In this document: positions 42,401-45,400 of the stretch, piece after piece
Position numbering within the stretch: position 1 is the stretch's first letter
Layout of the letters: each line of letters starts with the position of its first letter
Source: Mytilus trossulus
Lineage: Eukaryota
Assembly (NCBI RefSeq): GCF_036588685.1
Contig: NC_086373.1
Span: 64,604,001 to 64,668,000, forward strand
Direction of reading: 5' to 3'
DNA length: 64,000 bases
Program-made: the position numbers and the translations under genes
The notes under the pieces: model-generated
What the model saw: only the letters and a program-made list of their open reading frames with translations
What the model was told of the DNA's origin: nothing
Databases searched by the model: none

Positions 42401-45400
42401 TTCTAACAAACAAAAAACTTGTTTGTGTAAACATTTTTTTTATGAAAAAAAACAATGCAGCATTAAATCTATTTTAAATACAGTGATATTTCATAAAGTA
42501 TAACAAATATGTGCACCCCATCACACAAACCTGTGGTGTAAGAGTATCCAAGAACTTTTTGTACATGTGATATTCTTTTAAAATGTCTTCAAATTTAGAG
42601 ATCTCTGATTTTATTGTCATTATATCTGCGTTCACTCTCTTTATTTCTTGGACTTTTTCCAGTTTGGCTTTGGTTTCATTTTCAGCTCTAGAGAAAAATA
42701 ACAAAAATTGCTAATACCATTAAAAAATTTCTTTTTTATTTCTGACAACATTTTGTCTTCATATCTTATGAGCGTAAATTCAAACCACTGACACTTATAA
42801 TATTAAAATTCAAACATTTCATTTTATATTTTGGATTTAAGAAAACAAGTTTTCAGTATGAGTATATTCACTCATAAATCAAAATTGTTAAAGTAAATTA
42901 AGTGGCATTTTTTTTTATAAATACACAATGAATATCACTGAAAATATATTCACAAGCAATACAACAACCCATGTGCTTTTCTGCAGTCTATATTTGTGTT
43001 ATTGCCTCAAACTTCTTTCACCTTTTGCACATTTTCAAATCAATAAACAGAAGTGTGCTTTACAAGTAGATTATATAAAATGAACATACTATAGCAATCC
43101 TATGTTATGCAACAGGTTTTGAAATAAGTAGACAATTTTAAAAATTTAACCCAATATGATTTTTTTAAAACATAATACAACTTTTTAAACATAATACTGT
43201 GATGTGGTCTAACAAAAAAAATACACAACTTCTTTAGACTCAAATAGGTAATTTGGAATAGTGTGAACATAACACACGCATTTCAAAGATAAAATATCAA
43301 GCATATACTTTGCAATTAATAATCTATTTTTAAACACACATGTGAAAAAGATGTTTTTTTATTGTTTTGAATCTCTTTAAAAAATGTTGATCCGTTTGAA
43401 AAATTACCATAGAATTACTATAGTACATGTAGTATGTGACAAATGTATATAAATTGCTCTTCTTGATATTCCAACCCCTCACAAAATCATTTCTAGAAAA
43501 TCCAACCTGAGGCGTGACTTTCTCAAGAAATTTCTTGAACAATTTAAATTCTCTAAGGAGGTCTTCGTAATTAGATATCTGAGATCTAATAAGACTCATC
43601 TCTGTGGAAAATGCTTTGATCATGGTCACTTTCTCCTGTTTTTCTCTCATTTGACCTTCATACCTAAATATATAGGTTATCACTAAATACCACTTGCTTA
43701 ACACAACCATGAAAACATGTGATCTACTTGGTTATTTGGACATGAAAAAAATCCATAAACATGTTTTGTGTACAATTGTAGGTCAAAAACAAAAATCAAA
43801 AGAAAAACTGTTGTAGTAAATGAGTAGTAAGCATATACATGTATAAATAATAAGTTTTTCACGTAAGTTTTGTTTTTTACAATCAAAATTAATTCTTGCA
43901 GAAAATTGATTAAAATATAGATTTTTTGTAACAGCACTATTTTATTAGGTGTTTTTTTTTTTTTTAAATCAGTGTAACCTTGGTGACTTACTCTCTAACA
44001 GCTTCCACAGAACCTGTGTCATTTTCTTTTAAGAATTCATCAAACATGCTGGCATCTTCTTCTAAATATAATTCTGCCTGTTCTAATTTTTTCTCTTCAG
44101 CCTGAGCTATTTCTTCCAGTTTCCTTATTTCATCTCTTTTAACCCCTAATGAATACTAAAATACAGACTAGACTTTAAAACATTTATCAAAGCCTAAATG
44201 AAAGTTTTGTTTTAAATAAATAATATATATATACACATGTTATATATTTGATAGTCACAATCAAATGCAGAGATAGAATTCTGTAGATACAAGTAAAAAA
44301 AATATATCCTTTGTGTATACAACTTTTAAAACAATGTTTTACTTACGGTATATTGAAAAAAGTAAATTATATTTTCTTTTGTAACTTTATTTTTATGATG
44401 TTAGTTTTAATGTGAAATGTAATGATGTATCCCCTTTAATAGAATAATATTTGTGTAACCCAAAACTTAGTTGTTATTAAGCAACAGAATAAACAAAAAC
44501 AAATCCTTCCTTTTCTTTAAACTCTAACAATCTATTTAAATACCTGTACTAAAAACATTTCCCTTTTCTTTTGAATATATTCTGCTAATGATTCTTTTTC
44601 TACATGTCGGTCTGGAAAGAAAGATTTTTTTTTTATCAAAACACTTATTTGTATACTTTATCACAGTATTTTAAAAGTTTTTAACAAAACTGCAAACTTT
44701 GTAATCCAATAAATGACATTTCATATTGAAGTCTTAATTTACATAGAACAAATACTGGTTAATCTGACTATGATACATGTATTGATAAAACTTAAATTTT
44801 GCCTTTTGAAATTGCTTTGTGAATACCAACAGTCTTATAGCATGTGTATTCAGAATTTTTTTACTCTATGCTCAATTTTGTACTTTATTAATCTTTAAAT
44901 TTTTTTTTATTTGAGCATCACTGATGAGTCCTTTGTAGATCATGTCTACCATGCAGACACTTGATTAGTGTCTGCATGGTGCACAAAATTGTTTGTGTTA
45001 TCTTTGATAAGTTTTTTTTAATTTATGGTTAATTTTTGTGTGATTTTGATAATAAATGTAATTTTTCTGTAGCAAATTTCAACTAACTAATTTCTCTCAC
45101 TAATGAAACATACCTCTTGTGACAGCTATTGTGAATTGTGGATCATCTTTTACTGCTACAGCTTTATCTGAATCCTCTGCTTCCCCATCTTCATCGGAGT
45201 CAGCTGGTCTGATCATAGATGCTGTACGGAAATTTACTTTAGAGGCATATGTTGTTTTCTCATGAACTTTCAATTCTCGCTGTTTCAATCTTTCCTGGAA
45301 ATAAAATATGCGGATTAGTTTATAATTAAAATTCTCAATAAGGCATATAATCAAGACATGTATGTCGAATGTACATGAATGTTTTGGTGTTTAGAATGAT

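Follow-up and report, generated by a model that had tools for sequence, protein, structure and literature searches.

Tandem copies of one exon, likely spliced mutually exclusively, in the CFAP100 gene of Mytilus trossulus

The stretch of Mytilus trossulus DNA analysed here (64,000 nucleotides of contig NC_086373.1, 64,604,001 to 64,668,000; hereafter the window) contains, on its minus strand, a gene whose nearest proteins in a protein search are Mytilus CFAP100 sequences. A tblastn search of the window with CFAP100 of M. coruscus (P0003, 581 aa) recovered 15 coding exons between 47074 and 30424, each with 82-100% identity, along with one additional match of 43% identity at the exon that we term 7A. 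Together with the exon borders, these matches place the coding span at 30424..47074, with the ATG at 47074 and the stop codon at 30426-30424; each isoform comprises 15 coding exons, and the protein has 581 aa in Mytilus relatives. P0003 is homologous to human CFAP100 (8J07, E 8e-121) and to Chlamydomonas FAP100 (8GLV, E 3e-80), and these homologies and the Mytilus CFAP100 matches bear out the host gene named in an earlier interpretation of the letters alone (the sequence-only reading). FAP100 forms with FAP73 the heterodimeric coiled coil MIA, one of four anchors, which tethers dynein f and runs between the tails of its heavy chains (PMC10266980). Identity as the MIA subunit is indicated by a DUF4200 domain and by full-length FAP100/CFAP100 homology, both of which are present. 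In addition, residues 149-266 of P0003 match residues 28-145 of FAP73, and exon 7, which aligns to residues 186-235 of FAP100 in 8GLV and 221-268 of human CFAP100 in 8J07, lies inside this FAP73-homologous part.

Three genome searches, in which the best candidates were scored, returned a single CFAP100 locus in this Mytilus genome and no second CFAP100 gene among those candidates. A CFAP73-like gene is present in the same genome, on contig C8, and no doubled exon was seen in 9.9 kb of it. The CFAP73-like locus occurs twice, at C8:23862223-23866238 and C17:1484235-1488250, with equal scores and spacing, which points either to a haplotype retained in the assembly or to a recent duplication. Another DUF4200 gene, separate from both CFAP100 and the CFAP73-like gene, lies at C3:37643000-37652900.

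Other frames were observed in and around CFAP100 in the window. One intron holds a coiled-coil-rich, stop-free frame of 356 codons (38157-39227, minus strand), which we take to be of the retroelement ORF1 type, and another holds, on the opposite strand, a frame of 252 codons (32480-33238, plus strand) that presumably corresponds to the C terminus of ORF2 of a non-LTR retroelement. Converging on the 3' end of CFAP100 are exons of an amidohydrolase-like gene (24712-26466, plus strand), presumably imidazolonepropionase/AMDHD1, and an exon-like frame at 61649-61870 (plus strand) resembles, by our assumption, RNase P subunit p30.

The doubled exon lies between exon 6 (43992..44155, 164 nt), which encodes the first half of DUF4200 and has the donor GTAAGT, and exon 8 (41255..41445), the common downstream exon, which starts in phase 0. 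Here exons 7A (43507..43663) and 7B (42531..42687) stand in tandem on the minus strand, separated by an intron of 819 nt (42688..43506). Both are 157 nt long, enter in phase 2 and leave in phase 0; both are preceded by AG and followed by GT, are stop-free in frame +1 and end in TPQ|GT. Exon 6 ends in ...AGA GA|GTAAGT, and its split codon is completed to GAG by 7A and to GAA by 7B, in either case Glu. The two exons are identical at 22 of 52 residues, with no gaps, and at 91 of 157 nucleotides, and their homology was recovered in the genome search as a translated-type match (E 5e-7). Both encode the second half of DUF4200, at positions of about 68-119 (71-119 for 7A and 68-119 for 7B), with Pfam scores of 36.9 bits for 7A and 52.6 bits for 7B, above the curated cut-off of 29.7. 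Stop-free stretches of 157 nt between AG and GT number three within 41446-43930, namely 7A, 7B and one without likeness to the exon, and the tblastn search of the window with P0003 detected no other doubled CFAP100 exon. The sequence-only reading had already described this tandem duplication, including the equal length and phases, the split Glu codon, the shared TPQ ending and the scattered residue sharing free of stops and indels, and these points were all confirmed.

When exon 6 is joined to 7A or to 7B alone, the frame is open through exon 8. With both exons included, a stop follows 160 nt past exon 6, and with neither, a stop follows 4 nt past it, in agreement with the frame shift foreseen in the sequence-only reading. 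Because both combinations bring an early stop, use of one exon at a time is the sole route to a full protein. 7A and 7B are intact tandem copies that are likely spliced mutually exclusively. As to how exclusivity might be enforced, the steric type of mutually exclusive splicing, which depends on a very short distance from the upstream donor to the downstream branch point, is made improbable by the 819 nt that separate 7A from 7B, and no Dscam-type docking/selector pairing was found in the introns of this locus (the 6-7A intron in part), whose longest perfect complements were 9, 12 and 9 nt (p 0.98, 0.34 and 0.99 against shuffles). Given this intron length and the lack of such pairing in the sequence compared, exclusivity would instead arise from regulated exon choice combined with nonsense-mediated decay of double- and zero-inclusion transcripts.

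A-type exons are also present, and intact, in relatives of M. trossulus, contrary to the loss or disruption that the sequence-only reading had named as evidence against itself. In M. californianus, isoform X2 (XP_052079810.1) carries 7A and X1 carries 7B, the differences between them being confined to residues 217-265, and the GenBank protein VDI26690.1 of M. galloprovincialis likewise carries 7A; the M. trossulus exon is identical to these at 51/52 and 50/52 residues, respectively. In the oyster Ostrea edulis, X2 (XP_055999217.1) and X1 differ at 22 positions, all inside 217-269, and the junction residue of X2 is Asp, which the same split codon permits. These Mytilus and Ostrea A isoforms are automatic gene models; RefSeq alternative isoforms usually rest on RNA-seq. 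A second alternative event is apparent in Ostrea edulis between P0041 and P0138, X1 and X2 being 10 residues longer than X3 in the C-terminal half.

Eight A-type open frames were identified in metagenome or Logan contigs (P0123, P0124, P0166-P0170 and P0212), with 63-83% identity to 7A (30/48 to 40/48, or 29/39 to 32/39 residues). All eight read TPK and then V, the ending to be expected if genomic sequence is read on through a GT donor located as in 7A, and their hosts are presumably other mytilids. Across 11 A rows, 18 of the 39 shared columns are invariant, and six of these are A-specific. A profile search with the A alignment gave 79 matches, two of them at E < 1e-10 (P0124 and P0212), and the remainder were B-like or unrelated save for an oyster fragment, P0256, which corresponds to the last 30 residues of the Ostrea edulis A exon followed by V, as at a GT donor. 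A metagenome scan with P0123 yielded 367 pattern matches, none of which was confirmed, and a scan with 7B confirmed 4 of 441 (L003-L006), none holding an A exon, L003 being too short to judge. L004, which is genomic and clam-like by sequence, covers the region from exon 6 through exon 8 and has only one exon 7 there, with the phase-2 intron conserved, and L005 and L006 belong to distant eukaryotes.

Among the matches listed, RefSeq and GenBank proteins of M. trossulus, M. edulis and M. coruscus have only the B form, as do those of four other oyster species, one Pinctada entry and eight scallop entries. The absence of A from annotation is weak evidence, since A is missing from most Mytilus annotations too. 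The A-type exon was also found in none of 20 full-length Logan-derived proteins (5 Mytilus-like, 14 oyster and 1 scallop-like, with one oyster cluster of 52 members represented by the 15 listed), which suggests that the 7A form is minor or cell-restricted. Two other proteins, P0234 (KSEKV) and P0077 (REK), show A-like changes near the exon start and could be alternative exons elsewhere or diverged single copies. At the end of exon 6 (43992-43995), all pteriomorph proteins among those listed read VRE, and other animals mostly IKI, IKV or MRI; this change may be about as old as the duplication.

Homologs were compared over the best 120 of 253 matches, 112 of which lie outside the top Mytilus-like group. 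All 112 listed non-Mytilus homologs are nearer to 7B (31-43/52) than to 7A (at most 26/52), indicating that 7B is the ancestral type and 7A a derived, diverged copy. The mussel and oyster pairs could go back to a single duplication before the two lineages split, roughly 400 million years ago or more, or to two independent duplications of the same exon, in mytilids and in oysters, each having convergently produced a real alternative isoform. Five residues that both B forms lack, R6, E7, S19, R26 and R37, are common to the mussel and oyster A forms, as against one site (43) that favours local A-B pairs. Among the 112 listed homologs, R6 together with E7 occurs in one and S19 in none, which also argues for a shared origin, as does the finding that, over 16 sites at which both A forms are unlike both B forms, 5 match where a crude BLOSUM model with background frequencies expects 1.4 (p about 0.008). 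K to R, a substitution that commonly arises by convergence, accounts for three of these five.

Whole-exon comparison, on the other hand, is more favourable to independent duplications, oyster A (24/52) being hardly nearer to mussel A than oyster B is (23/52). A tree of 41 exon peptides over 52 columns, in which 20 of 38 inner branches were left open, sets oyster A among the B-type bivalve rows and mussel A apart, so that the two A exons are not joined. Constraining them to one clade lowers the log-likelihood by 4.8 units (AU p 0.315), the local pairings that represent independent origins are rejected neither in one form nor in the other (AU p 0.218 and 0.122), and a fourth AU test gave p 0.092; none of these values is significant. 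The A form is also in none of the eight scallop entries and one Pinctada entry among the matches listed, and convergent events are described as common in the tandem duplicated exon class (PMC9741552). On balance, the shared residues lead us to favour, with some confidence, a single duplication before the mussel-oyster split, and to regard two separate duplications as a credible but rather unlikely history.

With respect to function, 7B probably serves as the default and 7A as a conserved, probably minor form, which would exchange 52 residues in the DUF4200 coil, the predicted partner of CFAP73. The derived exon carries A1Y, E4Q, K6R, E14M, I18F and N19S, and further M23S, E28Q, K31N, K37R, Y39F and Y42F, all at positions that are 94-100% fixed among the 112 listed homologs. 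The hydrophobic seam, in contrast to these substituted positions, is kept, with 13 of 13 positions, picked by eye from periodicity without a structure, still hydrophobic or aromatic. 7A may therefore still form a MIA-type heterodimer while showing a new surface, in that it would retain the seam of the coil and alter outward, near-invariant positions (E4Q, E14M, N19S, M23S, E28Q and K31N). In one class of cilia, the 7A form would then turn an altered surface towards inner-arm dynein f or towards the structures next to it, and these cilia would get a differently tuned dynein f anchor. A complex prediction for 7A with one CFAP73-like exon piece, made without an alignment, gave a score of 0.02 (mark 0.34), a value that argues in neither direction.

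Since mammalian CFAP100 has also been localised to the centriole and transition zone (PMC13590520), dynein docking is a putative role for mussel CFAP100. The 7A form might be translated and yet be a decoy or non-axonemal protein, its dynein-facing surface lost, with a role at the centriole, in the transition zone or in flagellum assembly. Such a protein could well carry changes at nearly fixed positions and sit on a very long stem branch, as 7A does in the exon peptide tree (2.26 changes per column), and it would find counterparts in the centriole and transition-zone roles of mammalian CFAP100 and in CCDC38, which acts in the manchette and in flagellum assembly (10.1101/2022.01.10.475757). However, length, register and hydrophobic seam are exactly kept in 7A, and in human CFAP100 the NPHP3-binding and condensate region maps to residues 407-611 at the C terminus, away from this exon (PMC13590520). 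We consider a decoy or non-axonemal role unlikely, and prefer a modified dynein f anchor.

As to the cells that would use 7A, our first guess, a tentative one, is male germ cells, in line with the speculation of the sequence-only reading on sperm versus somatic cilia; it is made by analogy with mammals, in which CCDC38 is testis-specific and binds CCDC42 (10.1101/2022.01.10.475757). The absence of the A-type exon from the 20 Logan proteins is compatible with use in testis, because contigs break where two forms mix, and lends the sperm idea no support.

The conservation of 7A also bears on whether the exon is used at all. Between 7A and 7B, dS is about 2.9, near saturation, and dN is 0.46, and the two agree at 35, 34 and 22 of 52 sites at codon positions 1, 2 and 3; these figures compare 7A with 7B within one genome and are distinct from an ortholog dN/dS. 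Neutral decay was simulated by starting from 7B and running to the observed nucleotide identity (20,000 runs, indels being ignored, which makes the simulation conservative); the frame stayed open in 1.7% of runs, the frame together with AG and GT was kept in 0.17%, and at least 22 identical residues were kept in 0.02%. Taken together, dS, dN and the simulation indicate that 7A is under purifying selection and that the duplication is old, as the sequence-only reading had proposed. A decaying pseudo-exon, spliced as noise and annotated through prediction artefacts, is accordingly hard to reconcile with the rarity of simulated runs that keep frame and splice sites, although it could account for the absence of A from the full-length Logan proteins and for an acceptor poorer in pyrimidines than that of 7B (12 vs 16 of 22). 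The acceptor count of 7A nevertheless resembles those of constitutive exons 5 and 8 (11/22 each), 7A differs between M. trossulus and M. californianus at 1/52 residues and 7B at 2/52, and A-type orthologs down to 63% identity retain the frame and donor position, so that we judge a pseudo-exon very improbable. An assembly artefact, or a piece of a second CFAP100 gene within the intron, has negligible probability and is refuted by the presence of 7A across species, in independent records; the haplotype-like CFAP73-like duplicate shows that duplicates exist elsewhere in the assembly, but 7A and 7B are only 58% identical in DNA, and the genome has one CFAP100 locus with no other exon doubled.

Overall, we hold with good confidence that the 7A/7B pair is real and likely functional. 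The most complete scenario, in which one pteriomorph-ancestral duplication gave rise to a splice switch of the dynein f anchor and thereby to a CFAP100 coil whose outer face is remodelled and which is specific to sperm or to some cell type, is a good deal more speculative and, taken as a whole, doubtful. Were it true, the pteriomorph switch would amount to an experiment of nature, over 52 residues, that shows which surface of MIA tunes the beat. The animals concerned use different cilia for feeding, breathing, larval swimming and fertilisation. The differences between A and B point to outward residues that are fixed in nearly all animals examined and can be tested for dynein f contact.

The pair resembles the tandem duplicated exon substitutions, or homologous mutually exclusive exons, that have been catalogued for human (PMC8373072, PMC9741552). 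As in that class, the CFAP100 exons are neighbouring homologous internal exons of equal length and phases with canonical splice sites; each alone leaves the frame open, both or neither do not, and the copies are under purifying selection. As to exclusive use, relatives have annotated swap isoforms, and A-type proteins number 0 of 20 among the full-length Logan set. Human cases share the tandem internal copy of the same length and phase; they are used one at a time, as is likely for 7A and 7B, and are described as ancient and mostly tissue-specific, with core residues kept and changes mostly conservative (PMC9741552). In contrast to CFAP100, the human cases fall preferentially in nerve, muscle and ion-channel genes; the main text of PMC9741552 mentions neither CFAP nor CCDC nor cilia, and one supplement of PMC8373072 contains none of CFAP100, CCDC37, CCDC38 and CFAP. 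Within bivalves, duplicated exon 10 of oyster CvAOX is also a tandem pair with a conserved major and a diverged minor copy, the diverged copy coming first (PMC5589949). CvAOX differs in that a terminal exon of a mitochondrial enzyme is switched by stress in all organs (PMC5589949), whereas in CFAP100 an internal exon of a ciliary coiled coil is involved.

The same swap as in M. trossulus is seen in M. californianus XP_052079810.1, M. galloprovincialis VDI26690.1 and O. edulis XP_055999217.1, in each case as an automatic model only. The sequence-only reading knew of no earlier description; this stands for the open-access literature, subscription journals being outside its coverage, in which we found no paper describing a CFAP100 exon swap, linking mussel and oyster or testing the isoforms, but not for annotation, where XP_052079810.1 (X2) and VDI26690.1 already carry 7A. 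What is already known, therefore, are the A isoforms in automatic annotations and the well-described exon-substitution class, and the splicing mechanism itself is ordinary; what is new is the mussel-oyster link, the signs of selection and the occurrence of such a swap in the gene for a ciliary dynein regulator.

Differences between the axonemes of cell types are known mainly from extra subunits and from few paralog replacements, among them sperm-specific ones (PMC11779644), to which a conserved splicing swap within the MIA coil would add a further way of making axonemes cell-type-specific. A parallel is found in mammals, which have two FAP100 and two FAP73 homologues (PMC3628515). The pairs CFAP100 (CCDC37)/CCDC38 and CFAP73/CCDC42 likewise provide two versions of the FAP100 subunit (PMC3628515), but there whole genes were duplicated, whereas in Mytilus one gene has one 52-residue swap. 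With a single CFAP100 locus in its genome, Mytilus would achieve by the exon swap, at a smaller scale, what mammals achieve with the CFAP100/CCDC38 gene pair.
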